Source: an uncultured Ignavibacteriales bacterium
Lineage (GTDB): Bacteria > Zixibacteria > MSB-5A5 > GN15 > FEB-12
Assembly: GCA_964544635.1 (NCBI GenBank)
Contig: CAZJCK010000004.1
Coordinates: 1,790-65,789 of the forward strand
Direction: 5' to 3'
Length of the DNA stretch: 64,000 nucleotides
The notes beneath the pieces are model-generated. The model saw only the letters and a program-made list of their open reading frames with translations, was not told the origin of the DNA and searched no databases. Shown here piece by piece: positions 10,654 to 61,686 of the stretch (the stretch's first letter is position 1; each line of letters begins with the position of its first letter). The position numbers and the translations under genes are program-made.

Positions 10654-10658
10654 CCACT

Positions 10659-15817: not shown

Positions 15818-16698
15818 TGCGAATACAACGTTACATACACCGGCATGCCGATTTTCAAGTTACCGTCGGTATTGGGAATCTCGACCTTGACCGCAAACAC
15901 CAGGTTGGCGCGGGTTTTGGCTGTCTGTACATTCTTGGGCGTAAACTCCGCCTCCTGGCTGGTCCAGACGACTCGCCCCGAATAGACCGTACCTCCGGAC
16001 TCGGTGTCAACCGAGGCCGAGTCGCCCACCGACACCGAGGCAAACTTGCCGGTCGGCAGGTAGACTTCAACTTCCATCGTATCCAGGCGGGCTACTTTGA
16101 CAATAGGACGCCCCAGCGACAACAGTTCGCCGATCTCGACGAAGCTCTCGGTGATGCGTCCGGCCATCGGAGCGACCGGCGTGCAGTCATCGAGCTGTTG
16201 CTGCAGGTTGGCAATGTCCGCAGCGAGTCGTTCAATCTCAGCTTCGAGCGCCGCGATATTGGCCGTTGCCGCCGGTACCGCTATCAATGCCTGGGTATGT
16301 TCATGGTCGGCACGGTCGAGTTGCTGCTCGGTAGCGGTGCCGGAAGCTCTCAGCTTTTCGATGCGAGCCAGCTCGGTTGCCATAAACGAGACCTGCTCCT
16401 GTGCCCGGCGACGCTCCGTTTCAGCGGCGTTGCGCCTGGCCTTAGCTGCGGTCAAACCGGCGCGGGCGGCATCGAGCTGCAACGCCACGCGGGTGGTGTC
16501 GATCAGTACCAGGGTATCACCCGGCCCGACACTGCTGCCTTCGTCGACATACCTGGCCAGCACCCGGCCCGACGTTTCCGCCGATATGATCGACTCGGTC
16601 GATTCGATCAGCCCGGAGCCGCCCGGTAGTTCAGCTTCGTCGCCGCAACCGCCGATCAGCAACAGAGCGCCGACTGCCGCCTGGAGTAATCTCTTCAT
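15814..16698 (-). CDS. HlyD-family membrane-fusion (periplasmic adaptor) protein
   Basis: 294-aa ORF with a lipoprotein-like signal (LLLIGGCG), a coiled-coil hairpin and beta-barrel segments typical of YbhG/HlyD adaptors. Confidence 0.85.
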   Translation of the reverse strand: MKRLLQAAVGALLLIGGCGDEAELPGGSGLIESTESIISAETSGRVLARYVDEGSSVGPGDTLVLIDTTRVALQLDAARAGLTAAKARRNAAETERRRAQEQVSFMATELARIEKLRASGTATEQQLDRADHEHTQALIAVPAATANIAALEAEIERLAADIANLQQQLDDCTPVAPMAGRITESFVEIGELLSLGRPIVKVARLDTMEVEVYLPTGKFASVSVGDSASVDTESGGTVYSGRVVWTSQEAEFTPKNVQTAKTRANLVFAVKVEIPNTDGNLKIGMPVYVTLYSQ

Positions 16699-42432: not shown

Positions 42433-43716
42433 GTGCTCAACCGATCCCGAACATTCCTCACCGTCGCCCTTGCAGTCGTCTGCTGCCTTATCTCCGGCGC
42501 AGCCGCGACCGAATACGACACCGCCGACCGTCTCCATATCTCCAACCTGCACCATATCAACGACGATTATGTGAGCTGGAGCGAACGGTTGCTGGTTGAC
42601 GGTCTGATCGATGGTGACATGATTTCCGGATCGGGCGATATCACTATCAACGGCACAGTGGGCGGTTCGGCAAACCTGTTCGCGGCACAGATTCACCACT
42701 TCGGCACGATCGATCGCTCCCTGCGCATCTTCGCGCAGTCGGCCGACATCGACGGCACTGTCGGCGGCTCGGTCATGGCTTTCGCCATGGATCTCACGCT
42801 CGGCAGACCATCGGTGGTGACTCGCGATGTCAGTGTCTTTGGCACTACCGTGAAGCTGCGGGGCACCGTGGGGGGGCGCGTGCTGGCCTATGCAGAGAAC
42901 ATATCCATCAGCGGACGAATCACCGGCGATGTCGAGATCAAGGCGGAGCAGCTCGAACTGATCGCACCGGCTGTCATCGAGGGAAATCTCATTTACACCT
43001 CGGAACGGGAGATGTTTATCGACGATACCACCGGTGTGACAATTGTCGGCGGCATCGAGTGGAAACGGCCATCCGATCGGGATGAGTCGGAGGACGACGG
43101 CAACGCCGTGGCCGGCATCGCCATGACGACCGGAAAGCTGCTGGCGGCATTCATCTTCGGTATTATCATGATGGCCCTGTCGCGACGCCATGCCGATGCT
43201 GCGTTCCGGTCGCTGCAGAATCGCCTGACCACCTCCCTGGCCGCCGGCGTCGTCACCCTGCTGGCCTTTGTCTTCGCCGTCATTGTGCTGATCATCGCGC
43301 TGGCCATGCTGATAAGCGGCACCATTATAGCCGCCTCGGAAAACGCCACCGTGGGTGCCTTCATCTTCTCGCTGTCAGTGATTGCGCTGCCGATCAGCAG
43401 CTTCGTCTCGGTGGCGGGGGGGGTGCTGTTTTACTCCGGTAAGATCATTGCCGGGTTCCTGATCGGCTACTGGATCATGTGCCGCCGTTCACCCGACTGC
43501 CGCCCGCTCGGCAAAGGACAGCTTTTTCTCGGTCTGCTCATCCTCTTTCTGGTCTTCGCCATACCGTACGCCGGGTTTGTCGTCTACCTGGCGGTGAGTA
43601 TTCTCGGTATGGGTGCGATTGTGCTGGGGATCAGGTACTGTCAACAAACCGGAACGGCTGCCGGCGACGGGCGCGCTTCGCCGCCCCCGCCGATTCCCCC
43701 CGGCTCGACTCAATAG
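42433..43716 (+). CDS. exported beta-helical repeat (bactofilin/DUF583-like) domain fused to a multi-TM C-terminal region
   Basis: 427-aa ORF (GTG start) with a signal/anchor LTVALAVVCCLISGAAA. It has repeated ...I(D/N)GTVGGS... units (ITINGTVGGSANLF, DIDGTVGGSVMAF, KLRGTVGGRVLAY, ISGRITGDVEI), then about six hydrophobic helices and a Pro-rich tail. Confidence 0.55.
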   Translation: MLNRSRTFLTVALAVVCCLISGAAATEYDTADRLHISNLHHINDDYVSWSERLLVDGLIDGDMISGSGDITINGTVGGSANLFAAQIHHFGTIDRSLRIFAQSADIDGTVGGSVMAFAMDLTLGRPSVVTRDVSVFGTTVKLRGTVGGRVLAYAENISISGRITGDVEIKAEQLELIAPAVIEGNLIYTSEREMFIDDTTGVTIVGGIEWKRPSDRDESEDDGNAVAGIAMTTGKLLAAFIFGIIMMALSRRHADAAFRSLQNRLTTSLAAGVVTLLAFVFAVIVLIIALAMLISGTIIAASENATVGAFIFSLSVIALPISSFVSVAGGVLFYSGKIIAGFLIGYWIMCRRSPDCRPLGKGQLFLGLLILFLVFAIPYAGFVVYLAVSILGMGAIVLGIRYCQQTGTAAGDGRASPPPPIPPGSTQ

Positions 43717-45419
43717 CCGCCGGAGCTGCCGCGCCCGCGCGGATCTGCCTTCGACACCAGCATACCGCCCGAGGTATACTGCACGACATTCATCTCGCCC
43801 ATCGGCGACCGTTCTTTTACCATGTGACCATATTGAATGAGCGCCTGGGTTGTCTGGATGGGAAAGCCGCCCTGTTCCATGTACAGCATGTCCGGCAGCC
43901 ACTGGTGATGCACCCGCGGCGCCTCGACCAGCGCGCTCAGGCTCATCGTGAAGCGCGAATAGTTCAGTATTCCCTGTGCCACAGTACTGATGATTTTCGA
44001 ACCGCCCGGTGAACCGAGCGCCATCACCGGTTCATCCCCTTTAAGGACCAGCGTCGGTGACATACTCGAGAGCATCCGCTTGCCCGGTTCGATGCGGTTG
44101 GCTTCGCCGGTGATCAATCCGAACTGATCGGGCACCCCCGGGCTGACCGAAAAGTCGTTCATCTCGTTGTTCAACAGGAAGCCGCCGCCGGCTACCATCA
44201 GTTGGGCGCCATACGACGAGTTGAGGGTGTAAGTCAGCGCCACCATGTTACCCTGATTGTCGCATACCGACAGGTGGGTGGTACTCTCGCTTTCCGGCAA
44301 CGGCGGCGTACCGGGACCTATCTCCTCGGAGTTGTGCGCTTCGCCTGGTTCTATCATGCTGCGGCGCATCGCCACATATTCGGAATCCAGCAGACCGGTG
44401 GGGATGGATACAAAGGCGGGATCGCCGAGGTAACGCGAGCGATCAGCAAACGCCAGTCGCGAGGCCTCGGCGAACAGGTGGAGGTACTCGGGCGACACCT
44501 GTGACATCAACGACATATCATACGGTTCGAGAATCGACAGTATCTGGCCGATGACTATGCCACCCGACGATGGCGGCGGCATGGAATAGATCGTCAGGGA
44601 GTCGAAATCAAACCGGATCGGTTCACGCCAGACCGGCTTATATCCGGCCAGGTCCTCAAGCGTGATGAGGCCGCCGCGACGCTGCATCGAGGAATCGATA
44701 AGATTGGCTACGAAGCCGGTATAAAACTCGTCAGCGCCCTCGGTTGCGATCAGGTAGAGGGTGCGGGCCAACTCCGGCTGCACCAGGCGTTCGCCCGGTG
44801 CCGGGGGACGGCCATTGGGGAAAAACGTCGCCGCGGTTACCGAGTCATGCTGCAACAGCGGGTAATATTCGGCGAGTGACTCGGCCAGGCCATCATCGAT
44901 GACAAAACCGGTATCGGCCAGGGCGCGGGCCGGCTGAACGAGAGCCTCCCACTCCATGCTGCCGAACCGCTTGTGCAACTGCCATAACCCGGCCACCGTG
45001 CCGGGAACACCGACTGCCTTTGCGCCAACCAGCGAGGCCTCTTCGTCAATCGTACCGTCGGCCGTGAGGTACATCGAATCGGTTGCGGCCTCCGGCGCAG
45101 TTTCGCGGAAATCGAGACTGGTCACCGTGCCGCCGGAACCGTCACGCAGCAGGGCGAAGCCACCGCCGCCGATGTTGCCGGCCTGGGGATGGACCACCGC
45201 CAGTGCGAAGGCGGTAGCAACAGCGGCGTCAAACGCATTGCCGCCGTCCGCAAAGATCTGTTCGCCGACCTTGGTGGCAATCGGTGCCGCGCTGGCCAGC
45301 GCCCCGCCCTGGTATTGCTGCGTAACCTGGAGCTGCTCGCAACCGGCAATCGCCAGTAGCAGGACGACCGTCGCCGCAAACAGCATGCAGGCGCGACGCA
45401 ACACAGTACGATCTGTCAT
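43710..45419 (-). CDS. ggt: gamma-glutamyltranspeptidase
   Basis: Inside ORF 43710..45446 (TTG). I prefer ATG 45419 (MTDRTVLRRACMLFAATVVLLLAIAGC) because AGGAG lies 8 nt upstream. The autoprocessing and nucleophile context is ...ESTTHLSVCDNQGNMVALTYTLN.... The 3' end overlaps the convergent gene by 7 nt. Confidence 0.9.
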   Translation of the reverse strand: MTDRTVLRRACMLFAATVVLLLAIAGCEQLQVTQQYQGGALASAAPIATKVGEQIFADGGNAFDAAVATAFALAVVHPQAGNIGGGGFALLRDGSGGTVTSLDFRETAPEAATDSMYLTADGTIDEEASLVGAKAVGVPGTVAGLWQLHKRFGSMEWEALVQPARALADTGFVIDDGLAESLAEYYPLLQHDSVTAATFFPNGRPPAPGERLVQPELARTLYLIATEGADEFYTGFVANLIDSSMQRRGGLITLEDLAGYKPVWREPIRFDFDSLTIYSMPPPSSGGIVIGQILSILEPYDMSLMSQVSPEYLHLFAEASRLAFADRSRYLGDPAFVSIPTGLLDSEYVAMRRSMIEPGEAHNSEEIGPGTPPLPESESTTHLSVCDNQGNMVALTYTLNSSYGAQLMVAGGGFLLNNEMNDFSVSPGVPDQFGLITGEANRIEPGKRMLSSMSPTLVLKGDEPVMALGSPGGSKIISTVAQGILNYSRFTMSLSALVEAPRVHHQWLPDMLYMEQGGFPIQTTQALIQYGHMVKERSPMGEMNVVQYTSGGMLVSKADPRGRGSSGGY

Positions 45420-45442
45420 ACCGTCAACTCCTGTGCTGTCAC

Positions 45443-47623
45443 TCAACGCTTCTCAACCAGAAAGATGGCGCCGTCGGGAATGTTAATCGTCATCTGGATA
45501 CCGTCGGCCAGTTCCTTCGCGGTCACCTTGATCGGCTCGGTCTCCTCCCCTTCGAACAGGCGCGTGAGTTTGACACGGGCCGAACGGAAACCGAACTTCT
45601 TGAGGTCGACGCGGATGATGACATCCTTGCGGGTGGCCTCATAGCTGTCCGACAACTCACCGGCCGGCGGCGCCACGATGAACATGAGGCCGCGCTTTTC
45701 ACCCATCTGGACACCGATATCGACCGACGGATCGCTGCAGTGCATCGCCGACACCAGCCCCTCGCTCTCGAGGGTCGACTCGGTAAACATCAGCTTGTGG
45801 TGATGGCCGCCGGAGGCGATGTCGTAGGTGAACAAGTAGAGCTTGCCTTTGTAACGCGACGACACGGCGCCCAGGGTCTTCTTGCCCGACTTGACCAGCG
45901 AGCGGGTCTTGGAATCGTCGTTACCGCGAATGTAGCCGTAGGTATACGACGGAAAGTCGCCGAACTTGTGTTCGATAGTCGAGATGCCGTAGTCACAGGT
46001 CGTCTTCATGCGGAAATGGTTGGCGAGGATCTGGCAGTCCTTGAAGTTTTCGTCATACTTCGGCATCAGGCCGCAGAGGATGACCACCGCGCCCTCCTTG
46101 ACGAGGTTGACGATCTCTTCCTGGTCACGTTCGGACATGACCTCGGTGCTGGGGATGAACAACAGCTTGTATTTGTTCATCGTACTCCACTCGCGGTTCT
46201 CGCGCACCCCCCAGTTCATTTTGAGGCGCATGAGATCGCGGCAGAAACCGACGGTGGAGTCGTCAAGCAGACGCTTGATATATGGGAAGTCCTTTTCGCT
46301 GTCGGTTTCGCGCATCCAGTAGTAGAGCCGGTTGCCGACGACGGCGATTTCGGTAGGGGCGTCCATATCCTCGAGTCCGATTTCAGACATGGCGAGATTG
46401 AAGTTCTTGGCGATTTCGTAGCCTTCGCTGACAGTACCGTCGTTGCGCAACGGCGCGCCGTACCAGTGATCACGGTCGACAAACATGTACTGGTTCAGCC
46501 CCTTGAAACCGGCCGACAGGCCGGCGGCGAGATAAAAGCGACGCTGGTTATTGTCGACCGGCGCGACGTGCTGCTCCCGTTCCGGGTCAGTTGCGGCTGA
46601 TCCGGAGGTGAACGACGAGGCGTACGCAAAGCCGTACTCCTCCCTGAGGAAGCGGGCCTTGACCGAGAGGTCGAAGTAGGAGCCTTCCGGAAAGACATTC
46701 GCCCCGAGGAAGGGAGAGCGGTCTTCAGGCACCAGGTTGAAGGCCGGAAGCAAGTCGCCACCGCGAAAATAGAGGGATCGGAATATGAGCGGCTCGACCG
46801 TATAGGCCTGAAACAGATCCTCGAGCTGTTCGAGATAAGTGCGCAGCATGTACTGGCGGAAGTGCTGCCAGTCGAGCACCTTCGGGTAGTCGCTGATCGC
46901 GAGCTTGTCGAACTTGCGCGGCGGTTCGACCTCCTCGAAGCTCTTGTTCTTTTCCTTGTAGGCCTGGTTGAGCTTCTTGATATCCTCGTACTGACGTTCG
47001 AGAAATTCCGGGTAGAAACTCCTGAGCACATCCTGGTTGTAGTCGGCGCTGTCCGGCTCGATAAGACGGCCGTACGACGTTTCATAATCCAGCTCGACCA
47101 TGAAAACCGGGCCGCGCGGGTGGATGTAGTTTTTCGTGACTTCGATGACCGACTTGAAGTAGTTGCGCAGGTGATACTGATAGTTGGTGTGCAGGTAGCT
47201 GGGCAGATAGCCGGCGTCAACCCCACAATCGTCGGGCAGCTTCACCTCTTCACCGTCGGCTCCCCGCGCAAACACTTTCAGATCGGAGAACAGGTATTTA
47301 GGCAGACCGGCATATCGCAACTGACCATGGACCTGCGGGCCGGGACGAAGAATGACCTTGAAGCCAAACTCGCGCGCCAGCTCGAGGAATACAACCAGAT
47401 CCTTTTTAGGATCGGAAAGTCCGTTAAAGTCGTAGTGCTTACGCTCATCCTGATGCACGTTCCAGGGTACGGCGGTGGAGATGATCCGAAATCCGGCTCG
47501 TTTGATTCGCTCGAAACAGATCGACCAATATCGCTTTTCCACCCGGAAGTAATGCAATTCGGCAGAAAACGGATGATAGGTTTCCTTACCGATGGAGAAC
47601 TTGTTACCGATAACGCCTAACAT
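45443..47623 (-). CDS. GH35-family-like glycoside hydrolase (beta-galactosidase-like), no signal peptide
   Basis: 726-aa ORF. The N-terminus ...SAELHYFRVEKRYWSICFERIKRAGFRIISTAVPWNVHQDERKHYDFNG...VILRPGPQVHGQ... follows the GH35 pattern. The acid/base region is divergent (see findings). Confidence 0.65.
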   Translation of the reverse strand: MLGVIGNKFSIGKETYHPFSAELHYFRVEKRYWSICFERIKRAGFRIISTAVPWNVHQDERKHYDFNGLSDPKKDLVVFLELAREFGFKVILRPGPQVHGQLRYAGLPKYLFSDLKVFARGADGEEVKLPDDCGVDAGYLPSYLHTNYQYHLRNYFKSVIEVTKNYIHPRGPVFMVELDYETSYGRLIEPDSADYNQDVLRSFYPEFLERQYEDIKKLNQAYKEKNKSFEEVEPPRKFDKLAISDYPKVLDWQHFRQYMLRTYLEQLEDLFQAYTVEPLIFRSLYFRGGDLLPAFNLVPEDRSPFLGANVFPEGSYFDLSVKARFLREEYGFAYASSFTSGSAATDPEREQHVAPVDNNQRRFYLAAGLSAGFKGLNQYMFVDRDHWYGAPLRNDGTVSEGYEIAKNFNLAMSEIGLEDMDAPTEIAVVGNRLYYWMRETDSEKDFPYIKRLLDDSTVGFCRDLMRLKMNWGVRENREWSTMNKYKLLFIPSTEVMSERDQEEIVNLVKEGAVVILCGLMPKYDENFKDCQILANHFRMKTTCDYGISTIEHKFGDFPSYTYGYIRGNDDSKTRSLVKSGKKTLGAVSSRYKGKLYLFTYDIASGGHHHKLMFTESTLESEGLVSAMHCSDPSVDIGVQMGEKRGLMFIVAPPAGELSDSYEATRKDVIIRVDLKKFGFRSARVKLTRLFEGEETEPIKVTAKELADGIQMTINIPDGAIFLVEKR

Positions 47624-47797: not shown

Positions 47798-47825
47798 AAA
47801 AAAGCCCCCGCCGAATGGCGGGGGC
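47798..47825 (-). terminator. rho-independent terminator of the T9SS-sorted protein gene
   Basis: GCCCCCGCC-gaat-GGCGGGGGC perfect stem. On the minus strand it is followed by TTTTTT. It lies 26 nt after the stop at 47851. Confidence 0.7.
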
Positions 47826-47850: not shown

Positions 47851-48759
47851 TTACTTCAGAAGCATCATCTTCCTGGTATCAACATGCTCGCCGGCAGTCA
47901 GCTTATAGAAATAGATACCACTGGCAACACTGCCGCCGGACTGATCGGTACCATCCCACTCTACTTTGTAGGTGTTGGCATCCAGCGGGGCGTCGAGCAG
48001 GGTATTAACCTTCTGTCCGAGCACATTAAACACATCGAGGCGTACCCATTCGCGTGACGGTACGGAGAACTCGATCGTCGTGGTCGGGTTGAAGGGGTTC
48101 GGATAGTTCTGGCTCAGGCTAAAGCTGTTCGGTACAGCGCCGCCGGTCGCGGTCGCACTCGAAACGTCGGCAATCGTAATAGAGCCCCCCGGGCCATACG
48201 GCCAGACCGGCTTGAACCCTTGTGGCGGGTTAACTTTGTTAATGAACGTCCAGACCGAGTTGGCGTTGAACTGGTTGGTGTCGATTACGATGACATCAGA
48301 GGTCGACCAGGTCGGATCGACCGAGAAATGGTACGTCGCAATCAGCCGGCGACCGGAAGCATCGCCGGGAGCGATACCAAATAGGCGCGCTCCGGCGAAA
48401 TAGAAACGTTTGTTGGCATTGGTGGTGGCAAGACTACCGTCTTCAAAATAGCCGACCGCCAGATCAAACCAGTCGTCTTCAATGACGGCCGGGGAGCCGG
48501 CGGAGTCGAGAACGAGGAGTGCCGGATTGGGTGAGTTGTTCCATGTAAATCCACAATTCATGCCCTTCAGGGAGTCATCAAAAAACGCCCACAGCTCCAG
48601 CTTGAATGTGTACTTACTGGAGCCGGCATCCGGCTGATCACCGGGCACCAGCACGAGGTCGACGGTATCGGTAATGCCGAAGTCGGGCTGCGCCAGGGCA
48701 CTGCCGCCGGCAAACAGCATCAGGCCGAGCAGCGCGGCGAGAAATACTTTACCTTTCAT
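47851..48759 (-). CDS. secreted protein with a T9SS type-A C-terminal sorting domain and a cohesin-like beta-sandwich body
   Basis: Inside ORF 47851..48795. ATG 48759 (MKGKVFLAALLGLMLFAGGSALA) has GGAGG upstream. The C-terminal 90 aa ...LSQNYPNPFNPTTTIEF...GIYFYKLTAGEHVDTRKMMLLK are a textbook Por_Secre_tail. The cohesin-like call for the body is by eye only. Confidence 0.85.
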   Translation of the reverse strand: MKGKVFLAALLGLMLFAGGSALAQPDFGITDTVDLVLVPGDQPDAGSSKYTFKLELWAFFDDSLKGMNCGFTWNNSPNPALLVLDSAGSPAVIEDDWFDLAVGYFEDGSLATTNANKRFYFAGARLFGIAPGDASGRRLIATYHFSVDPTWSTSDVIVIDTNQFNANSVWTFINKVNPPQGFKPVWPYGPGGSITIADVSSATATGGAVPNSFSLSQNYPNPFNPTTTIEFSVPSREWVRLDVFNVLGQKVNTLLDAPLDANTYKVEWDGTDQSGGSVASGIYFYKLTAGEHVDTRKMMLLK

Positions 48760-48933
48760 TCTATGTATGCCTCCATAGCAAAAAAAATTGTCCACGTTAT
48801 AACTTCATCTTTCCTCAAACAAATACGATAACAATAGTCGTTAACCGTTCCTCCTTCTCAAAGTTCCCCTAGATACACTAAGTTGGCTATCTCAATAGAC
48901 GTTCTTATCCGTGCGTACGTTTGCCGCCATAAA

Positions 48934-48962
48934 ATAATAGCTGAGGCAAGAATACGAGTCAA
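48934..48962 (-). promoter_or_regulatory. near-consensus sigma-70-type promoter upstream of the T9SS-sorted protein gene
   Basis: The minus strand reads TTGACT (48962-48957), exactly 17 nt, then TATTAT (48939-48934), implying a leader of about 170 nt. The -35 element sits inside the palindrome GAGTCAAT-aagag-ATTGACTC (48956-48976). Confidence 0.45.
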
Positions 48963-48983: not shown

Positions 48984-49031
48984 AAAAAACACGAGAAATG
49001 CGAACGGTTCACTAAACCGTTCGCATTTCTC
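48984..49031 (-). terminator. rho-independent terminator of the S8 protease gene
   Basis: GAGAAATGCGAACGG-ttcactaaa-CCGTTCGCATTTCTC, a perfect 15-bp stem. On the minus strand it is followed by GTGTTTTTTG. It lies 50 nt after the stop at 49081. Confidence 0.7.
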
Positions 49032-49080
49032 AATTCCGTCACAATGGCCCGGTTGCGGCCGTTATTGGTCTTACTTCAGA

Positions 49081-51456
49081 TTATGGACCGAACAGGAAGT
49101 CGGTCAGGCAGGCAAGATCGATCGGATCCACAATCGTATCCATGTTACAGTCACCGCCAACCGGGTCCGGAGTGGGGCCATTGTCGAAAAGGAAGTTGAC
49201 CATAAAGGCCAGATCGATCGGGTCCTTTACACTGCCGTCACAGTTGGCATCGCCGAAGTCACAGGCGTTGACAACAACCTCCCCGGCCTGCGTTATCGGC
49301 CAGTAGTCGCCGTAAATGGTCGAAATAAACGCCTTCTTGGTGCCTAACTGGGTGACGGTATCGATGGGCACCGATCCACCCGCGCTGCTCGCGCCTATCT
49401 TGAAGCGCAGCTTGACGATAGCACCGGTATCCGGCAGCAGGTAGGTCGACTCGCCCGGGCCGCTCGAGGAAAGCAGGAGCGAATACTGCTTGGTAAAGCC
49501 GGAGGCGAGGTTGAAGTCGATATCGAAAAAGTCTTCAGTTCGCAGGCCCTCAACCGAGAAGGCCGAATCGGTGTCAAAACCAACATCGATGCTGTTCGGG
49601 AATTCGAAGACCAACTGAACCGACTTGACCGGCACCGTATTGTTCAGGTAAATCGGCATTTCAACGATGTCACCGAGGCCACCTTCGACAGTCGTGAAGA
49701 CCAGCGTGTCGGCCTGCGCCCAGATGTAGTTGACCAGTCGCTCCTCACCCATCCCGAGCGGGTGACCGTCATCGATAGCAAGGTTCACGGAGTACACACC
49801 CGGTTCGGTATAGACAAACTGCGGATTCTGTACGATCGAGCTGTCGCCGGTGCCGAAATCCCAGATCCACGAGACCGGAGAATTCGGCGACTGATCCGTG
49901 AAATTGACCGTCAACGGCACATTGCCGTCGGTGACGTCGGAAGTGAATTTGGCATTGGAGAGGCTGCTCAGGGCAGTAAAGGCGTTAATCCGCCCGGAAC
50001 CAAGACGCCCGGTGTAGATCGGGTCGTTGATGCCATCAATGTTGTCGGTGGTGGCGATAATGATCGAGTCGACCTGGGCACGGGTCAGCGACGGCATCAT
50101 TGACTTGATCAGCGCGGCGAGGCCGGCTACCATCGGCGAGGCCATTGAGGTACCGCCAAGCGTCGCTGTTGTCGGGCTGTACTGGAACGAGTAGGTGGAG
50201 AGAATGGATGAACCCGGCGCCGAGACATCGACCCAGATGCCGAAGTTAGAGAAGCCGGACCTTATGTCCGACGAGGTGGTGGACGCCACCTGCAACAGGG
50301 CCGGGACCGCCGAGGTGTAACCGTCGGGGCAATCACAATTGTCGTTGCCGGCCGCCTTGACGACCGTGACACCGTTGGCGATCGCATTGTTCATGGCAGC
50401 GATCACCGTTGAACTGCCGCCACCGCCCCAGCTGTTGTTGAGAATGTCCACGCCCATCATGGTGGCATAGTCCATAGCAGTAGCGATATTGTTGCTGTTG
50501 AGTAGACCAAGACCATCGGAGGCCCGGCTGGCGCCGGCTCGCAGGGCCATAATGCGGACTCCGCCGAACGAGCGATGACCACCATACCAGCCACCGGCCG
50601 CGCCGGTAACATCGACCAGGTTATTGTTCATGGCGGCAATGATGCCGCTGACGTGCGTGCCGTGTCCGCCAAAGTCGTTGGGATCGGGATCGGGCGCACT
50701 GCCGTCCTCGCCCGGCACGACCGGCTCGCCAATTCCTGTCATGAAGTCGTAGCCGATCAGGTCGTCGATAACACCGTTGCCGTCGTCATCGATGCCATTG
50801 ATGTCGTCGGTGTCGAGAACATACCCGTCACCGTCGATGTCTTCCCCCGGGTTTACCCAGGTATTGCTATTGAGGTCGGAGTGGGTCCAGTTATAGCCGC
50901 CGTCAATCACGCCGACGACGATCTCCATCGAGCCGGTTTCGATATCCCAGGCATTGTAGAATTCCGGGTCTGGCCCCGGCGGCTCCATTGCCCACTGGTT
51001 AGACCACAGCGGATCGTTGGGCGTCGCCAGTTGCGGAATGGCCCAGACCGGTTCGGCCATGCGCACATTCGGATCCTGCGACAGGGCATCGACGACATCC
51101 TGTACCGGGATGTCTTCAGGGAATTGCAGCTCATAGAAACGCGACAGATCTTTCATCCCTGAATTGACAGCCGGCCGTTCATTGTTGTATGGGAAGACCG
51201 CTCGATAGGCGGCGACATCGAATTGCTGCATGGCAGCATCGAAGCTCGCAACACCAAAGCTGGGCGCCCCCGATGCCGCTTTGCTGACATTGTTCAGACG
51301 GACATTATCCTCAAACTGAACGGTGACCAATCCGGGGATGATAGTCGCCTGGGGCTGCTCGCCATTGGGATTGTAGACAGCCGAGGCTGATGTCGACAGG
51401 ACTGTCAGCAACAGCGCCAGGCAACCGACCGCTACGGTTGTTCGGCAGATAGTCAT
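49081..51456 (-). CDS. secreted S8 (subtilisin-family) serine protease with PKD, cohesin-like and dockerin-like C-terminal modules
   Basis: Inside ORF 49081..51465 (GTG). I prefer ATG 51456 (MTICRTTVAVGCLALLLTVLSTSASA) because GGAG lies 8 nt upstream. The catalytic triad contexts are VGVIDGG, GHGTHVSGIIA and GTSMASPMVAG. The PKD module has ...PLTVNFTDQS...WDFGTGD...YTEPGVYSVNL.... The tail is GDANCDGSVKDPIDLAFMVNFLF...GDCNMDTIVDPIDLACLTDFLFGP. Confidence 0.9.
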   Translation of the reverse strand: MTICRTTVAVGCLALLLTVLSTSASAVYNPNGEQPQATIIPGLVTVQFEDNVRLNNVSKAASGAPSFGVASFDAAMQQFDVAAYRAVFPYNNERPAVNSGMKDLSRFYELQFPEDIPVQDVVDALSQDPNVRMAEPVWAIPQLATPNDPLWSNQWAMEPPGPDPEFYNAWDIETGSMEIVVGVIDGGYNWTHSDLNSNTWVNPGEDIDGDGYVLDTDDINGIDDDGNGVIDDLIGYDFMTGIGEPVVPGEDGSAPDPDPNDFGGHGTHVSGIIAAMNNNLVDVTGAAGGWYGGHRSFGGVRIMALRAGASRASDGLGLLNSNNIATAMDYATMMGVDILNNSWGGGGSSTVIAAMNNAIANGVTVVKAAGNDNCDCPDGYTSAVPALLQVASTTSSDIRSGFSNFGIWVDVSAPGSSILSTYSFQYSPTTATLGGTSMASPMVAGLAALIKSMMPSLTRAQVDSIIIATTDNIDGINDPIYTGRLGSGRINAFTALSSLSNAKFTSDVTDGNVPLTVNFTDQSPNSPVSWIWDFGTGDSSIVQNPQFVYTEPGVYSVNLAIDDGHPLGMGEERLVNYIWAQADTLVFTTVEGGLGDIVEMPIYLNNTVPVKSVQLVFEFPNSIDVGFDTDSAFSVEGLRTEDFFDIDFNLASGFTKQYSLLLSSSGPGESTYLLPDTGAIVKLRFKIGASSAGGSVPIDTVTQLGTKKAFISTIYGDYWPITQAGEVVVNACDFGDANCDGSVKDPIDLAFMVNFLFDNGPTPDPVGGDCNMDTIVDPIDLACLTDFLFGP

Positions 51457-51743
51457 GGATCTCACTCCAACACGATTACTGGTGATTTATTGACAATTCT
51501 CTTCTCTCAGACAGGACGCACCGTGCCAACCGAATGTTTGCAGCAATCGCCACCCTCAGTCTGTATCCCTTGGTTATGCTGTCGGCCGGGTCATGGTTAG
51601 ACCTTATCGTCGTACACCTTCGGTAGATTGCCGGTCAGAGACAGGTACCGCTGCAACACGCGAACCGACGGGCGACCGATTTGCGGCAGATGTACCGATG
51701 GTGGAATACACCTAAATATAAGGGATTAGCCTGATTATCCAAG

Positions 51744-51830: not shown

Positions 51831-54800
51831 TTACGGACACGGGACCGGACCGGCGCCACCTGCGAACAGGAAGTCCACAAAGGCAGCAAGGTCAATCGGG
51901 CCGGCGCTTGTGCCGTCGCCGTCAAAGTCGGCTTCTTCCGGACAGACCGGACCAGAACCACCTGCGAACAGGAAGTCCACAAAGGCAGCAAGGTCAATCG
52001 GGCCGGCATCAATACCGTCACCGTCAAAGTCACCGGTCGTACCAATACAGCAGCCAGTGCTGAGGTTGGCCTGGTACCAGGCTTGCGCATCGTCAAAGGA
52101 AGCCTGAACATCAGCGTCCGTACCGTTCTGGATGGTAATGAGGACGGTTCTGAAGCTCAGGGTGTCACCGATGTTGAGCGAGGCGTTCTTCGTGAACACC
52201 ATGGCCGAGTGCAGATCGACGAACAGCGAATCCGGATCGGGCGAGCTAAACGTCTCGAACGCAACGGAAGTCACCATACGATCGTACATCTGACCGGCTT
52301 CGAAGCCGGAGACGTTCAGCACGTAAGTGGCGTTGTCAGCGGTGTAGGCCGACAGACCAGCCTGGTCACCACCGAGGTAACCAAGGGCGCCGTAACGAGC
52401 GTCGTTATCCTGGCACTCAGTCGTGTCGTCCTGGTTGTATTCGCCACCGAACTGCCAGATGATACCGCGGGTATCATCGAAACCGGAACCGTTGTCGACA
52501 GCGGAGTCGGCCGGGATATCCCAGTCGATCGCTTCACCGATCAACAGACCGGAACGGGTGCGAGTGTCGCACAGGGTCAGGCTCAGTTCCTGCAGAATGT
52601 AGTTGCCCACGCTGACGCCGGCGCCGCCACCGGAGGTCGGGGCGTACCAGGTCTTGGTCAGGCAGATACTGGAGTCGTTGGTGAAGAACTCAGCCACGTA
52701 TTTCTCGTAGCTGTCACCAGCGTTACCGGTTTCGTTGGACGGACCGGTGTGGCCGCGCGGACGCAGACCGTTGTCGCTGAGCCAGCCGTCACCGAAGATC
52801 GACCAGTTCATGACAGTATCAGTACCGTCAACCCAACCGACCACCGGGGTACCATCGTACAGGTAAACCGTAGCCAGAGAATCACATTCAGTAACGTCGC
52901 CGGCATAGTCCATGGTCACCGAGTCGGCGCCCTGGTTACCGAAGTTACCGGCCGAGTTCACGACGAGATCAACAACGCCGGTCGAGATGGTGTCGAAGAC
53001 CGGGGCGATGACAGTGTCAGCAACCCAGTATTCGAGTTCCAGCGTATCCGGCGAGCTGGCCGCGTTGTGGACAAATTCGAGGAAACCGGCCAGGTAAACG
53101 ATCGTACCAGGCGAGTTCACGATACCACCAGTGTTAAAGCTGATCGTACCGGTTTCCTGGTTACCAATACCCGACGGAACAGCACCGTCGAAGTTGGCGC
53201 CGGTGGCGAGCCAGCCGGACGGACCGGCGGTTTCCACGGCATTGATCGAATATGTCAGAGGCTCGTTACCGAGGTTTTCAATAAGTACGTCTTTGTCGGC
53301 CTGTACGCCATGCTTGGTCCAGTTCGGGAAACCGATCGAGGTCGGGTTCACGCTGAACTGCGAGGCGCGGACCGGCTCGACACAGGCGAGGCGGAACCAG
53401 GCGACATTGGAGAGCGCCCAGGTACCTTCGGTCTGCACCGAACCACCCGGATCACCGTCCTGAATGTACTGGACATCCAGGTAATCGTCGCCGGCATATG
53501 AACCGTCGACATCGACGTAGCTGGCCTGCGACCAGTTTTCACCGACCTGCTGGGTGTGTCCGAAGCGGGTCATGGACGGCCAGTGGTCAGAGAAGCACGG
53601 GCCACCGGTACCGGTCGCGGAGTCACAACCCGGCGTGCGGGAATTGGTGACGTTACGCGACTCGTCCCAGGTGATACCGTTGTCATCAGACACCGACACG
53701 TACAACTCACCGTTGGCAGCGCCACCGAAGTCACCATCGGCAGCACGGGCGGCACAGTCGTCTTCGACACCACGCGGGATGTCGTTAAACTGGACCCACA
53801 GACAGTAGAGCTTACCATCACATTCGCCCAGCTGCATCTTCGAGAAGTTCAAATTCCAGACACCGCTGTTACACTCGGTTTGATCCCACTGACCGTTGTA
53901 GATCGTACGGATCGAGCCAACGTCGGACGCCCAGTAGAACAGACGGCCGCGGAACAGACCGCAGTCACCGGTCGCGTCGACCGAACAGGTGCCCGGCCAT
54001 TCGCGAGCGCCCCAGGCAATCGACACTTCGTCGTCGCTGCGGATGAGCACGGAGAGATCGATGTAGGCGCGGAAGCCGTCTTCGTCACGCACGTACTGCG
54101 TAATGTTCTGGCGCGGATTGAAGGTTACGCCACCGTCGTCAGAGGTAAACAGATAAACATCGTTATCCTGCTGCGCGATGAGCGCACCGTCGTTGTTCGA
54201 ACAGGTGTCGCAATCGCCAACTTTGGGAATGTTCGCCATGAAAGCGATCGCAACCTTCTGGGTGGTACGGGAGGCCGAGATATCCTGCGACAGCGTAAAG
54301 TTGGTGTCGAGTACACGCGGCGGGTAATCCCAGGTACCGGCATTGTCAACGCCAACCTTACGGAAGTAGTACATGAAGCTCGGATCGCCGGCCTGGCCGT
54401 TGTCAGTCGTCGAGGCCGCAATCACGTGGGTCACCGGCGTAGCGCCGGTTTCCTGGTAGGCGATAGCGGGCCAGATGGTCGACTGGGCAGTCGGCCCTTC
54501 GGCGCCAAAGCCACCCAAGTACTGCTGCACAGAATCCGGAACACGCGAGTTCTTCGTAAAGGTCTGGAAGTGCTCGAGGAAATCCCAGTAAATATGGGTC
54601 GAGTTCCGTGTGCCCGGGTTGTTGTGACCACCGATGACGACGCGGTTGTCAGTGGTGACATCCGCTACGACATAACCGGCGTAGTCGCCACCCGCCTGAA
54701 CGGGGACGTCGCCGGCAAATGAGCCGTCATCAGCTTTGTAAAAGTTATAACGATAGCGACGGTCCGAACCGAAGGCGGCTTCGGAAGGCATCCACATCCA

Positions 54801-55148
54801 CGAGAAGTGGACGGTCGGAATGCCGGAGCCACCGGAGTGGGGGCCGAATCCAACCATGCGGCGCATCGAACCGTTGCGCTGATATTCATACCAAGTGTCA
54901 CCGACGACGGTACCCGGTGAGGCTGACGGCGTGGCCGTACCGAGGGTACGGGTCGCGAGATCGCCTTTCGGGGCCATGGTCGGATTACCCTGTTCACCGC
55001 CGGCCGCAAACGCATACCCAACCGACTTCCAAATCAACGGATTCGGATGGACGCGAGGCACTTCATTTTTGGCGGCAAAGGCTGACATGGCCATAAAGGC
55101 AAATGCCAGCAAGGAGATCAAAACTATGGTCGATAGTCTCCTTGTCAT
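51831..55148 (-). CDS. large secreted BNR/Asp-box repeat protein with a tandem dockerin-like C-terminus
   Basis: Inside ORF 51831..55184. ATG 55148 (MTRRLSTIVLISLLAFAFMAMSAFA) has AGGAG upstream. It carries Asp-box motifs SDDGGVTF and SDDNGITW, and the tail is GDFDGDGIDAGPIDLAAFVDFLFAGG...ADFDGDGTSAGPIDLAAFVDFLFAGG. No closer family recognised. Confidence 0.75.
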   Translation of the reverse strand: MTRRLSTIVLISLLAFAFMAMSAFAAKNEVPRVHPNPLIWKSVGYAFAAGGEQGNPTMAPKGDLATRTLGTATPSASPGTVVGDTWYEYQRNGSMRRMVGFGPHSGGSGIPTVHFSWMWMPSEAAFGSDRRYRYNFYKADDGSFAGDVPVQAGGDYAGYVVADVTTDNRVVIGGHNNPGTRNSTHIYWDFLEHFQTFTKNSRVPDSVQQYLGGFGAEGPTAQSTIWPAIAYQETGATPVTHVIAASTTDNGQAGDPSFMYYFRKVGVDNAGTWDYPPRVLDTNFTLSQDISASRTTQKVAIAFMANIPKVGDCDTCSNNDGALIAQQDNDVYLFTSDDGGVTFNPRQNITQYVRDEDGFRAYIDLSVLIRSDDEVSIAWGAREWPGTCSVDATGDCGLFRGRLFYWASDVGSIRTIYNGQWDQTECNSGVWNLNFSKMQLGECDGKLYCLWVQFNDIPRGVEDDCAARAADGDFGGAANGELYVSVSDDNGITWDESRNVTNSRTPGCDSATGTGGPCFSDHWPSMTRFGHTQQVGENWSQASYVDVDGSYAGDDYLDVQYIQDGDPGGSVQTEGTWALSNVAWFRLACVEPVRASQFSVNPTSIGFPNWTKHGVQADKDVLIENLGNEPLTYSINAVETAGPSGWLATGANFDGAVPSGIGNQETGTISFNTGGIVNSPGTIVYLAGFLEFVHNAASSPDTLELEYWVADTVIAPVFDTISTGVVDLVVNSAGNFGNQGADSVTMDYAGDVTECDSLATVYLYDGTPVVGWVDGTDTVMNWSIFGDGWLSDNGLRPRGHTGPSNETGNAGDSYEKYVAEFFTNDSSICLTKTWYAPTSGGGAGVSVGNYILQELSLTLCDTRTRSGLLIGEAIDWDIPADSAVDNGSGFDDTRGIIWQFGGEYNQDDTTECQDNDARYGALGYLGGDQAGLSAYTADNATYVLNVSGFEAGQMYDRMVTSVAFETFSSPDPDSLFVDLHSAMVFTKNASLNIGDTLSFRTVLITIQNGTDADVQASFDDAQAWYQANLSTGCCIGTTGDFDGDGIDAGPIDLAAFVDFLFAGGSGPVCPEEADFDGDGTSAGPIDLAAFVDFLFAGGAGPVPCP
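51856..52007. repeat. 50-nt perfect direct repeat (51856-51905 and 51958-52007), offset 102 nt, inside the dockerin-like coding region
   Basis: Both copies read CCACCTGCGAACAGGAAGTCCACAAAGGCAGCAAGGTCAATCGGGCCGGC on the plus strand. They encode the identical peptide GPIDLAAFVDFLFAGG in the two dockerin-like segments. Confidence 0.9.
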
Positions 55149-55645
55149 CCATTGCTCCTTTCGAGAATCCTGAATAGTTCCCAACTAGATTTTTCCGTGA
55201 CTTTTCGTCTCACTCCCGAGAGACGCATTCGGAAAGTTAGAGGCTTCGTCCGCCATCCATCACGGATGTGAATGGCTACCTCTTCGGATTCGGTTACTCC
55301 TTCTTCCAGTTCACCTCCCTTCGTTCGTCCATACTCTGCATAGGCAGATTCCTCTTGTGGACAGTGTTCTGTTGTTGTGCTTTAACGTTAGTCAAGAAAA
55401 CAGCTTTGAAGTAAGCCCAACCAATTCCACGTTTAATTCGTTCAGCGTTCCCGGTCAGAGAACTAGACAATGGTAGCACGAGGTATGCAGCGAACGCTCA
55501 CACTTTCGCGCATAAAAGTACGCGGGAAATAAGGGAACGCCTGAAGGCCATCCCCTCCACGCATCAGTATTTTGCACGTAGACCAAGATTCGCTGGTCAG
55601 TACTTGTTGTAGACATTAAAACCCATCACCGGGGTTTTCGCCCTA

Positions 55646-55801: not shown

Positions 55802-58800
55802 TTACTGCGGCGGACGGGGGCCGTAATTGTAGAGATAGTTGACAAGATAAGCGAGATCGGCAGGATCCACGATTCCACTGCGATCAACATCGCAGCGCTC
55901 CCACGGATCGGGCAGGCCGCCGCCGCGATACAGGTGCTTTGCGATGATGATCACATCGTTGAGTGTGTACACCTCGTCATCGTCGCTGTCACCCCGCATG
56001 AAAACTCCTACCTGGTAACTGATAATCAATACGGTGGAGTCGACGCCATCCGAGGCGGTTACCGTAACGTCATATGAATTACCAAGTTGGACACTGTCGG
56101 GGGCGAACATCAGGGTGGCCGTGCCGTTGCCGTCGTCGACTATCGACATGTTCGGCGCCAGCGCCGAAGTGGAGTACATGATCGAATCACCCTCGCGATC
56201 CTCGGCCTGAATGACCACTTCGTTGTCCAGTCCGAGGTAGGCGCCCTTGTTCAGCGGCGGATCGTTGACAATCGTCGGCGCCTGATTGCCGGCATCGACA
56301 ACGGTAAATTCAACAACCTCGGTCGAGATTCTGAAGGTCGGGTCAAACGCCTCGATCGTCAGCGAATAGGTGCCGGCCTGCGCAAAGTTGGGCGAGAAGC
56401 TCATGTTGTAGACCAAGCTGTCGCCGAGCAGGGCGACAAAGCTCAATGTCGCATTCGTCGGTGGATTGACCAGCCGCGCCGAATCAGGCCGGGCATCGAC
56501 ATCCCAGATATAGACCGTCGAGAACCAGCTCTCACCTTCATCAAGGGTGAACGGTCCGGTGCCCTCAGAGACACGAATGGTGGGCGGCTGCGGCACATCG
56601 AATACCCTGATCAACTGAGAGTTGACCGGCGAGACAAGCGTAGGATCGAGCTCGTCAACAGCCTGGAAGTCGATGTTGTATCGCCGCGGTGTCGGCGCCG
56701 CACCCTGGGTGTAGCTGGGGATAAAGGTCAGGTAGCCGAAGCCGTTGCCGGAGTCGACGAACGTCATGTTGTCGGCCAGCGAATCAGTACCCTGAAGTAC
56801 CGCGGTCAGGCTGGGCACAGTCGAATCCGGATCGATGCCGCGCATGACGAAGACGAGGGTGTCACCCTCGGCGACAGTATCCTGCTGGCTGAAGGTGCCC
56901 TCGATAACGAACGGCGCGCGGTTGGTATCGATGACCGTGATCTGGACGATCGTGGAATCGATATCGAGCACGCCGCCATTGGCGACGCCGGCCGTATCCT
57001 CGGCATAGAAGGTGATATTCCAGACACCGGCCTGAGTATCGTTGGGCACCCAGTTGAAGAAGCCGCTACCGTCGTCAAGATCGGTGTAGTCGGCGCCGAG
57101 CGGCAGGTTGCCGGCGGTCATCTGCGGAATGTCACCGTCGACATCGGTCGCCGTCATCGTGAACTGCAGGCTCTTCAACTCGGTAATCGAGGTGTCGGCC
57201 CGCGGATTGATGACCGGCGGCTGGTTGCCCGCTTCGTCGTAGGTCACGATCATGTCGGTTGTATCGGCAAGCGTACCATCGGATACCCAGACCTCGACGA
57301 TATAGACGCCGGCCATGGTGAAGTCGGGCGACATGGTGATCTCGGCAGTACCGTCACCGTTGTCGGTGAAGGTGAACTCGGGCGGCTCCGTTCCCTCAAT
57401 GACGCCGATGGTAACCGGCAGGGTATCGGGATCGGAGGCGTAGATCGTGTCGGCAACCGTGGTGCCTTCGACAACCACCGGGTTGGGCAGGGTATCGAAG
57501 ACCGGTACCTGGTCGCCGGCATCCGCGACCTGGAAGAGGACAACTTCCTTATCACTGGCCAGGCCGTCGAGCGCCTTGAAGGTCACACTGTGGAGACCGG
57601 ACTGGATAAAGTCGGGCGTCCAGGTGAAGACGGCTGTACCGTCGCTGTTGTCGGTAAACTCAGCGCCGCGCGGCAGCTTGGTGACATCAAAGAACGGCGT
57701 GGTGCCGTCGGGATCAGTGGCCGCCAGGTTGAGCGTGACGGTTTCACCCTCGGTGAGCACCTGCGGTCCAATCGGGGCCAAAATCGGCGCCTGGTTGGCT
57801 GCGAGCACCTCGATGTCGACCGTGATCTGCGACGACAGCTGCGGCGTACCCTCGTCAACGACAAGGAACTGCACGCCTAACGAGCCTTCCTGTCCGGCCT
57901 GTGGTGTGAACCGGAAACTGCCGGTGCCATTACCGTTATCGGTGAACGTGGCATTCGGCGGCAGACTGACAACCGACAGGAACAGGATATTGAACGGGTT
58001 CTGGTCGGTGGTGTCGCTGGCTTCGATGGTGAACTCCAGCAGGCCGTTGACTTCCACGGTGAACGGGCCGACCGGTTCGATTACCGGCGCCTGGTTGTTC
58101 TCGTTGGTGACTACGGCCGTGCGCAATGTTTGGGTCACCTGTGGCGTGCCGTCGTCGCGCGCGAATATGATCAGCGAGTCGACGCCGGCATCGAAGAAGT
58201 TCGGCGTGTATGTCAGCAGCGCCGTACCGTCACCATTGTCGACGAACGTATAGTTCTGCAGCGTCGTGTTGATCGAGATCGTCACGGCGCTACCTTCGGG
58301 ATCGGTGGCGGTGATGGTCACCTCGAGCGTATTCCCCTCGGTAACCGCCAAAGTACCGAGCGAATCGATGACCGGCGGCTGGTTGCCCGATTCGGTGACG
58401 CTGATGGTCACCACTTCGGAGTCGGTTGCGGCGCCGTCGGTGGCAAAGAAGGTGACGTCGTAGCTGCCGGCCTGGGTGAAGTCGGGAGTCCAGGCAAACT
58501 CACCGGTGCTGTCGGTGAAGACGGCGCCGGTCGGCAGGGCCGAGGTTGAGAGTGTCGGGACGGTGCCGTCGGCATCGCCGGCAGTAACCGTGAAGGCCAG
58601 CAGGGTGCCCTCGGCAATCGACTTGTCACCAATCGAATCGAGCACCGGCGGCTGGTTGCCGGCATCGAGCACGGTGATGGTCACCACTTCGGAATCGGCA
58701 ACACCGGCATCGAGAGCGTCGATCGCATAGAAGGTTACATCGTATGAACCGTCCTGGGCGAAGGTTGGTGTCCAGTCGAACAGGCCGGTACCGTCGCCGT

Positions 58801-61618: not shown

Positions 61619-61686
61619 TACCAAACCTCCAGTCGTGAAGTAAACACGCACGTTTTTCCTAATCTTACATCCTCAACCAGGCGGCC

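Follow-up and report, generated by a model that had tools for sequence, protein, structure and literature searches.

The stretch of DNA analysed here (the window: 64,000 nt, positions 1,790 to 65,789 of contig CAZJCK010000004.1, assembly GCA_964544635.1) comes from an uncultured bacterium labelled Ignavibacteriales and placed by GTDB in the Zixibacteria, and contains a gene for a small secreted protein that we examined as a putative cell-surface anchor for dockerin-tailed proteins. The gene (47851..48759, minus strand) lies within an open reading frame (ORF) spanning 47851..48795 on the same strand; its start ATG is at 48759, with a GGAGG sequence (48774..48770) 10 nt upstream, and it is conserved in many Zixibacteria. 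An earlier note on this DNA had described a 302-aa product in three parts at these coordinates, which agrees with the ORF, its translation and matches above cut-off to PF18962 and TIGR04183, with the correction that the gene is on the minus strand. [quoted passage not shown] On inspection, residues 1–23 (MKGKVFLAALLGLMLFAGGSALA|QP; 48691..48759) show the basic N-terminus and hydrophobic core of a Sec signal peptide, ending in an ALA|QP cleavage motif. The module follows (residues ca. 26–202; 48154..48684), and this body, of ca. 175 aa, scores 149 bits with the hidden Markov model (HMM) of an unnamed Zixibacterial family. The linker (residues 203–218; 48106..48153) is rich in Ser, Thr, Gly and Ala and shows no conservation in the family alignment; its last part, the only one within the modelled segment (residues 24–212), has a predicted local distance difference test (pLDDT) score below 50. 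Residues 219–302 (47854..48105) form the CTD, of which residues 219–299 match Por_Secre_tail (PF18962) with 30.4 bits (cut-off 27); the domain scores 36.5 bits with TIGR04183 (cut-off 23) and 129.7 bits with a local CTD HMM, and no other ORF of the window matches a CTD model.

Directly upstream of the target gene, on the same strand, three genes code for proteins of 794 (an S8 protease), 1117 and 1949 aa, all with duplicated dockerin-like segments at the C-terminus. A predicted intrinsic terminator (48992..49032, minus strand), with a 19-bp stem and a T run, was located by a terminator scan and in the sequence, and would end the transcript of the S8 protease. It is followed by a promoter-like site, TTGACT-17-TATTAT (48934..48962, minus strand), that a consensus scan picked out with 10 of 12 matches, which is not evidence of function. 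Directly after the target stop codon, a hairpin with a 9-bp GC stem, a 4-nt loop and T6 (GCCCCCGCC-ATTC-GGCGGGGGC; 47798..47825, minus strand) was read from the sequence as a further terminator; the terminator scan of the region did not list it. The terminator at 49032..48992, the promoter-like site at 48962..48934 and the hairpin after the stop codon indicate that the target gene is its own predicted transcription unit. Co-transcription with the protease gene was considered and rejected, a strong predicted terminator lying between both genes.

The body of the target protein matches no model of Pfam or NCBIfam and, specifically, does not match Pfam Cohesin at E ≤ 0.1. AlphaFold2, run with an alignment of 56 sequences, modelled residues 24–212 as an all-beta structure with a pLDDT of 90.6 and a predicted template modelling score of 0.88; a single-sequence model was useless (pLDDT 38.5). 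The resulting model folds like a cohesin, as a beta-sandwich of flattened shape with some nine strands, and is superposable on solved cohesins. The best matches of a Foldseek search against the PDB were cohesins of types I, II and III, with 5lxv_A, from R. flavefaciens ScaC, at the top (E 6e-6), followed among others by A. cellulolyticus ScaB cohesin 6 and by C. thermocellum OlpC, OlpA and CipA cohesin 2. About 27 of the 31 matches at E ≤ 1e-3 were cohesins, with template modelling (TM) scores of 0.5–0.63 for the query and of at most 0.75 for the target, and they include the single-cohesin anchors OlpC (4dh2) and OlpA (3ul4, target TM 0.75). The remaining matches (integrin alpha-X, the CLIPPER domain, pilins) reached TM scores of 0.26–0.40. 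A carbohydrate-binding module (CBM) or a lectin, which the earlier note had named as the outcome that would speak against its reading, was considered for the body and rejected, no such fold being among the significant Foldseek matches.

The earlier note had also judged, by eye, that the body resembles a cohesin-like segment of the neighbouring S8 protease. BLASTP of the body against that segment gave no significant match (E 7.1). The two were also compared as alignments, A1 for the target family and A3 for the C-terminal module of the protease from four orthologues. With hhalign, A1 and A3 matched over 140 colinear columns with a probability of 89% and an E-value of 2.1e-6, and all controls (reversed, 20 column-shuffled, and an unrelated CTD alignment) remained at E ≥ 0.05; the match is significant only with the four-sequence profile, since the family against the single protease sequence gave an E-value of 0.031 and a probability of 1.6%. 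This result, together with the clean controls, indicates that the resemblance is real and that both segments would be divergent cohesins. The A3 profile, in turn, found cohesins in all of its top five matches in the PDB (E 0.0016–0.03), namely CipA cohesin 2 (E 0.0016–0.0019), A. fulgidus 2xdh (E 0.024) and 1aoh (E 0.03), and hhalign of A3 against CipA cohesin 2 gave an E-value of 1.4e-4 with a probability of 53%. Searches with the target family itself were negative at this step: its profile found no PDB chain at E ≤ 10, and phmmer with the body found nothing in the PDB sequences. Taken together, the predicted fold and the two-step chain of homology make it very probable that the body is a module of the cohesin superfamily.

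A word-indexed homologue search matched the target alone when started with its sequence and gave three matches when started with the family alignment; exhaustive phmmer with the body over 1.84 billion cluster representatives (clusters at 50% identity) identified 141 relatives at E ≤ 1e-3, of which 76 were at E ≤ 1e-10. These 141 clusters belong almost wholly to Candidatus Zixiibacteriota, and the closest relative, P0002, is 60% identical to the target and is built of the same three parts. With a 10-sequence family alignment, a scan that took one genome for each species retrieved 60 loci (designated with L numbers), nearly all from metagenome-assembled genomes (MAGs) of Candidatus Zixiibacteriota and with several paralogues per genome; the same scan with the single target protein retrieved no relative. 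NCBI lists one of the relatives under candidate division Zixibacteria, with a name that identifies it as a T9SS sorting-domain protein. Within the window, the family HMM found no second member, reaching only non-significant E-values with the protease module, as it did with a 311-aa CTD protein of locus L001. The family also occurs in MAGs labelled Ignavibacteriales (L012, L016, L021, L023, L026, L027, L058 and others), Deferrimicrobium (L018, L025, L043) or Phycisphaerae (L050). Locus L058, labelled Ignavibacteriales, carries a full gene cluster of the Zixibacteria type, and the taxonomic labels or the binning of these MAGs look doubtful.

The domain, of ca. 170 residues, begins at most 60 residues from the N-terminus, right after a leader similar to that of the target, in 123 of the 141 representatives. 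Its C-terminal partner varies: ca. 52 representatives end in a T9SS CTD and ca. 57 in a dockerin-like tail, the rest being truncated or otherwise ended. In the Zixibacterial loci, 37 ORFs matched CTD models, and CTD and dockerin tail were mutually exclusive on the complete family genes of the 60 loci. Several members contain tandem copies of the domain: P0004 (1948 aa) has five, P0005 (894 aa) has four, and P0007 and P0008 have two each; in P0004, P0005 and P0007 the array is combined with a CTD. The tandem domains, Ig-like spacers and CTD of P0004 and P0005 give these proteins a multivalent, scaffoldin-like build. A Pfam scan of 16 large members revealed BACON_2, Big_9, PKD, fn3, TSP_3, FG-GAP and CarboxypepD_reg domains along with Por_Secre_tail or Dockerin_1, the latter above threshold in P0006, P0014 and P0076, and no catalytic domain in any of the 16. 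A role of the domain as a pro-domain or accessory domain of enzymes was rejected on account of this absence of catalytic domains from the large members scanned. By their composition, members with copies of the domain plus a CTD appear to be like scaffoldins, and those with the domain plus a dockerin like adaptors.

The same architectures would also suit a protein in which the cohesin-like fold is an adhesive or ligand-binding tip, for a polysaccharide, a mineral or another cell surface, with the dockerin-tailed neighbours merely co-located. The nearly constant position of the domain right after the signal peptide agrees with this, as do the long members, in which Ig-like stalk repeats and then an anchor at the C-terminus come after the domain, as in fibrillar adhesins; Foldseek also lists the CLIPPER domain of a fibrillar adhesin (9ifr) and pilins, at lower scores. 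Nevertheless, cohesins stand clearly above all other fold classes in that search, and the domain is homologous to a module that matches true cohesins by sequence. Arrays of four or five tandem copies are typical of scaffoldins and not of adhesin tips, and OlpA, OlpC and SdbA likewise have their cohesin at the N-terminus and their anchor at the C-terminus. Some large paralogues with a CTD but no dockerin-tailed neighbour favour the adhesive function, against which stands the recurrence of such neighbours in non-syntenic contexts (both described below). On balance, we regard an adhesive tip as rather unlikely.

We examined the tails of the neighbouring proteins. By inspection, all three contain two tandem segments of ca. 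22 residues, each with an Asp/Asn-rich calcium-binding loop followed by a helix. Scanned alone with Dockerin_1 (PF00404; cut-off 22.9 bits), the tail of the 1949-aa protein scored 26.3 bits, that of the S8 protease 21.2 bits, just under the cut-off, and that of the 1117-aa protein gave no match; orthologous tails from loci L001 and L007 scored 31.3 and 29.8 bits, respectively. The earlier note had the cluster otherwise ending in dockerin-like tails, which holds for these three upstream genes but not for a partial ORF further upstream (61687..63996), which has no dockerin at its end. The three neighbours have Sec signal peptides and neither a CTD nor any other recognisable signal for export across the outer membrane.

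The protease gene (49081..51465, minus strand) codes for a subtilase (Peptidase_S8, E 1.4e-40) with a PKD domain, the cohesin module and the dockerin-like tail. The module (residues ca. 577–735; 49261..49737, minus strand) is supported by the four-orthologue profile against the PDB and by hhalign, and scores 18.9 bits with Pfam Cohesin, below the cut-off of 24.1. The tail (49084..49254, minus strand) comprises the segments DANCDGSVKDPIDLAFMVNFLF and DCNMDTIVDPIDLACLTDFLF and scores 28.5 bits with a local dockerin-tail HMM. The protease thus has its own divergent cohesin directly ahead of the dockerin tail (49084..49737, minus strand), and the cluster therefore contains two candidate dockerin receptors.

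The next gene (51831..55184, minus strand) codes for the 1117-aa secreted protein, which has no Pfam match; on inspection it shows two Asp-box motifs and ends, at 51834..52049, in a duplicated dockerin-like tail in which DFDGDGIDAGPIDLAAFVDFLF is present twice. Orthologues of ca. 1120–1190 aa occupy the same position, with 27–41% identity, in L001 (4834..8400), L058 (3491..6862), L063 (4162..7701) and L065 (2649..6188). This conserved protein belongs to no family of Pfam or NCBIfam; it contains one or two Asp-box motifs (SDDGGVTF, SDDNGITW), has cysteines flanking the dockerin-like tail and may be a BNR/sialidase-like propeller. The third gene (55802..61651, minus strand) codes for the 1949-aa adhesin-like protein with Ig repeats (Pfam Big_9, He_PIG and Cadherin_5) and the Dockerin_1 tail (55805..55993). 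The partial ORF at the edge of the window (61687..63996, minus strand) codes for a Big_9/PKD repeat protein, ending in neither a dockerin nor a CTD but in two copies of a segment of ca. 60 aa (..SWEARFAAGFGVNFAVTVGGVYQINA.., ..NYESRFAVGFGTNFPVRAGKPYQANA..). Downstream of the target, on the same strand, are genes for a protein similar to glycoside hydrolase families 35 and 42 (GH35/GH42-like) and for a gamma-glutamyltransferase (43710..47623); the former shows a weak match to exo-beta-D-glucosaminidase and has no signal peptide.

The whole cluster is conserved in other Zixibacteria, where the giant adhesin, the 1117-aa protein and the S8 protease, each with a dockerin, come first, followed in order by the family domain with CTD, the GH35/42-like protein and gamma-glutamyltransferase. 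In all loci that have sufficient flanking sequence, namely L001/L002, L007, L051, L058, L063 and L065, orthologues of the target (32–41% identity) come directly downstream of genes with dockerin tails, so that the co-localisation on which the earlier note had made its proposal depend does occur. All six genes are present in L058, where the target orthologue is 41% and the S8 protease 53% identical; S8 orthologues adjoin the target orthologue here as well as in L051 and L065. The other loci depart from this order in detail: in L001/L002 the 311-aa CTD protein takes the place that the protease has elsewhere; the short contig of L007 has a fragment of a dockerin-tailed gene upstream and a GH35-like gene downstream; in L051 the dockerin-tailed protease is followed by a two-copy family gene with CTD; and in L063 and L065 there are two tandem family genes with CTD and a fragmented protease gene, which was ascribed to decay or to assembly errors. 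Tandem duplication of the target orthologue was observed in L063 (8920..10792), L065 (8926..10792) and L053 (1..1562).

Dockerin-tailed genes also accompany family genes with CTD outside this conserved order, within 2.6 kb in each of the loci L005, L006, L008 and L044. The four-copy gene P0005 of L005 (2619..5303) begins 11 bp after the gene of a dockerin-tailed FG-GAP/PKD protein; the five-copy gene P0004 of L006 (10001..15847) faces that of a 1604-aa dockerin-tailed protein; and in L008 and L044 dockerin-tailed genes lie within 0.5 and 2.5 kb, respectively. Over all loci, the density of other dockerin-tailed ORFs is 1.8–2.6 per 10 kb at up to 1 kb from the family gene and 0–0.7 at 6–10 kb. 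A group of paralogues of 1444–1638 aa with CTD, from L026, L027, L059, L067 and L044 (around 9900..15900), is always followed by a CTD protein of ca. 345–370 aa, and only the one in L044 has a dockerin-tailed gene within 10 kb.

In a given genome, unrelated proteins have similar dockerins. In the window, the motif [DG]P[IA]DLA is present in five of the six segments that make up the dockerins of the three neighbours, and other genomes have their own motifs, NV[AS]D[LV]T in L058 and N[IV]LDLT in L065. In a small sample of hand-cut segments from three genomes, 17-residue helix segments from the dockerins of the S8 protease and the 1117-aa protein were 68% identical within a genome (n = 10), and orthologous dockerins were 40% identical across genomes (n = 44). 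Species-specific pairing of cohesins and dockerins produces such within-genome homogenisation in cellulosomes. If the proteins had one shared, co-evolving receptor, convergence of their dockerins within each genome would be expected, and the likeness is thus a hint, at the level of sequence, of a shared receptor.

The target protein is non-catalytic and, apart from a single cohesin-fold module and the T9SS CTD, contains no domain, and its gene is preceded directly by three genes for dockerin-tailed proteins, which are the features of a scaffoldin. The reading that we favour, although with only modest confidence, is that it is a single-cohesin, T9SS-anchored docking post for dockerin proteins on the cell surface. 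This is the anchoring scaffoldin with one binding module proposed in the earlier note; the fold and the synteny support it, with dockerin binding and surface anchoring as inferences. By comparison with T9SS type A cargo, the CTD would direct export through the T9SS and then be cleaved off, and the mature cohesin, of ca. 190 residues, would be attached via its new C-terminus to the lipopolysaccharide of the outer membrane. There, judging from the fold, the homology and the neighbourhood, it would bind secreted proteins, with calcium, by their duplicated dockerin tails. The likeliest clients would be the S8 protease, which we propose first, the 1117-aa Asp-box protein and the 1949-aa Ig-repeat adhesin, all of which would be held on the cell. 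Since the protease has a cohesin ahead of its dockerin, it could recruit a second client and so form a short chain.

The lack of a CTD on the dockerin-tailed neighbours leads to a different use of the same contact, in which the target acts as a periplasmic carrier: the cohesin would grip CTD-less dockerin proteins and the folded complex would pass through the T9SS pore, in piggy-back fashion, with retention on the surface as an optional later step. The Sec signal peptides of these neighbours, with no recognisable signal for the outer membrane, would be explained by such a carrier, and the mutual exclusion of CTD and dockerin tails on complete family genes agrees with it; additionally, the T9SS exports folded cargo. 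However, export of the dockerin proteins could also take place by a type II system or in some other way, and we know of no precedent for hitch-hiking through the T9SS; we consider this carrier role improbable as a replacement for anchoring. Combined with the docking post, it is a bolder extension of our proposal, in which the CTD-bearing cohesin would also take its clients, which have dockerins but no CTD, through the type IX pore.

The family members that have the domain and a dockerin on one chain, which are roughly half of the total, raise another possibility, that the module binds dockerins on its own kind of protein only. Head-to-tail polymers, or an intramolecular lock, would result, building a surface layer or fibre for which the CTD form would be the membrane-proximal starter, and the same cohesin–dockerin pair at the C-terminus of the S8 protease fits this arrangement. 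Yet the proteins encoded in conserved positions next to the small CTD form do not belong to the family, and their dockerins are nonetheless alike within a genome, which argues against exclusive self-pairing; we give it little credence.

Several observations weigh against the docking post. Pfam Cohesin (PF00963, gathering threshold 24.1 bits) matches none of 56 family members at E ≤ 10, and hhalign of A1 directly against CipA cohesin 2 found nothing; because of these two results, the homology to cohesins is transitive and structural. The domain is about as frequent on dockerin-tailed as on CTD proteins and is therefore not specific to anchors. For the same reason, the argument of the earlier note that the target is the only CTD protein among dockerin-tailed genes is weaker than it seemed, although the target is indeed the sole CTD ORF in the window. 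The cytoplasmic GH35-like and gamma-glutamyltransferase genes are kept downstream in L001/L002, L058, L063 and L065, the four loci with small orthologues that extend far enough, and the GH35-like gene alone in L007, so that the co-localisation is partly plain inherited gene order; moreover, genes whose products are secreted cluster anyway. The paralogues of 1444–1553 aa with CTD (L026, L027, L059, L067) have no dockerin-tailed neighbour within 10 kb, and the predicted terminator implies that the target is transcribed separately from the S8 protease. The dockerin-tailed neighbours bear no recognised signal for crossing the outer membrane, and the T9SS core components SprA, PorV, PorU and GldKLMN did not appear in general scans of the window proteins, which did not include a genome-wide search. 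Finally, the identity comparison of the dockerins comes from the small, hand-cut sample described above.

More broadly, and still tentatively, at slightly less than even odds, the docking post could be part of a phylum-wide, undescribed cohesin–dockerin system for surface assembly in Zixibacteria. Such a system would comprise T9SS-anchored scaffoldins of one to five modules, adaptors with cohesin and dockerin, and dockerins alike within each genome, and the proteins on display would be proteases, Asp-box proteins and giant adhesins instead of cellulases. Cohesin–dockerin assembly is known almost wholly from Gram-positive cellulosomes that are anchored by S-layer homology (SLH) domains or by sortase. 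If true, an uncultured phylum of diderms would have adapted the plug-and-socket principle to display on the outer membrane and to cargo that is not cellulolytic. A domain family so far unannotated, with 141 or more clusters at 50% identity, would gain a name and a testable function, and protein engineering would gain new orthogonal cohesin–dockerin pairs. It would also raise the question of how CTD-less dockerin-tailed proteins cross the outer membrane. The central claim is directly testable with two small recombinant modules.

The closest working analogues, by analogy of architecture, are probably OlpA and OlpC of C. (Acetivibrio) thermocellum (3ul4 and 4dh2), which are likewise non-catalytic and combine one N-terminal cohesin with a C-terminal surface anchor. 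Their single type I cohesin tethers single dockerin-bearing proteins directly to the cell. They differ from the target in the anchor, for which OlpA and OlpC have SLH repeats on a Gram-positive wall and the target has a type A CTD of the T9SS at the outer membrane of a diderm; in sequence, with only 7–12% identity and no match of the target to Pfam Cohesin; and in the likely clients, which here would be a protease, an Asp-box protein and an adhesin instead of cellulases. With T9SS type A cargo, such as the gingipains of Porphyromonas gingivalis, the target shares the Sec signal peptide and the C-terminal TIGR04183/PF18962 domain. In P. gingivalis such cargo is attached to anionic lipopolysaccharide after removal of the CTD. 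The passenger is an enzyme or an adhesin in the T9SS cargo of Bacteroidota, whereas here it would be a protein-docking module.

Candidatus Stygibacter, of the phylum Cloacimonadota, belongs to the Fibrobacterota–Chlorobiota–Bacteroidota (FCB) superphylum. A cellulosome-like system was described for it in silico from MAGs, with a non-catalytic tandem-cohesin protein that ends in a T9SS CTD and was inferred to attach to the surface, and with enzymes that carry dockerin tails, an S8 peptidase among them (Williams et al., 2021; PMC8542988). The Stygibacter scaffoldin has 3755 aa, tandem cohesins detectable by InterPro and CBM2/CBM3, in contrast to the 302 aa and the single cohesin without Pfam or NCBIfam match found here; the two systems are from different phyla and both are inferred in silico. 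Non-cellulosomal cohesins and dockerins, outside plant-cell-wall degradation and sometimes on one polypeptide, were catalogued by Peer et al. (2009), as cited in PMC8542988. The cohesin of Archaeoglobus fulgidus (2xdh), matched by the profile of the protease module, and the cohesin-like module of Clostridium perfringens (2jh2), matched by the model of the body, are of this non-cellulosomal kind; such modules are recognisable by sequence profiles, unlike the family described here, which is also coupled to T9SS sorting. No link of Zixibacteria with dockerins, T9SS or type IX secretion was found in the literature searched. What is already known, therefore, is a T9SS-CTD scaffoldin with dockerin enzymes, inferred in Cloacimonadota in 2021 (PMC8542988). 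What is new here is a cohesin family invisible to current models, a minimal anchor of 302 aa, a conserved four-gene surface module, and the presence in one phylum of scaffoldin-like proteins with one to five copies of the domain together with cohesin-and-dockerin proteins.

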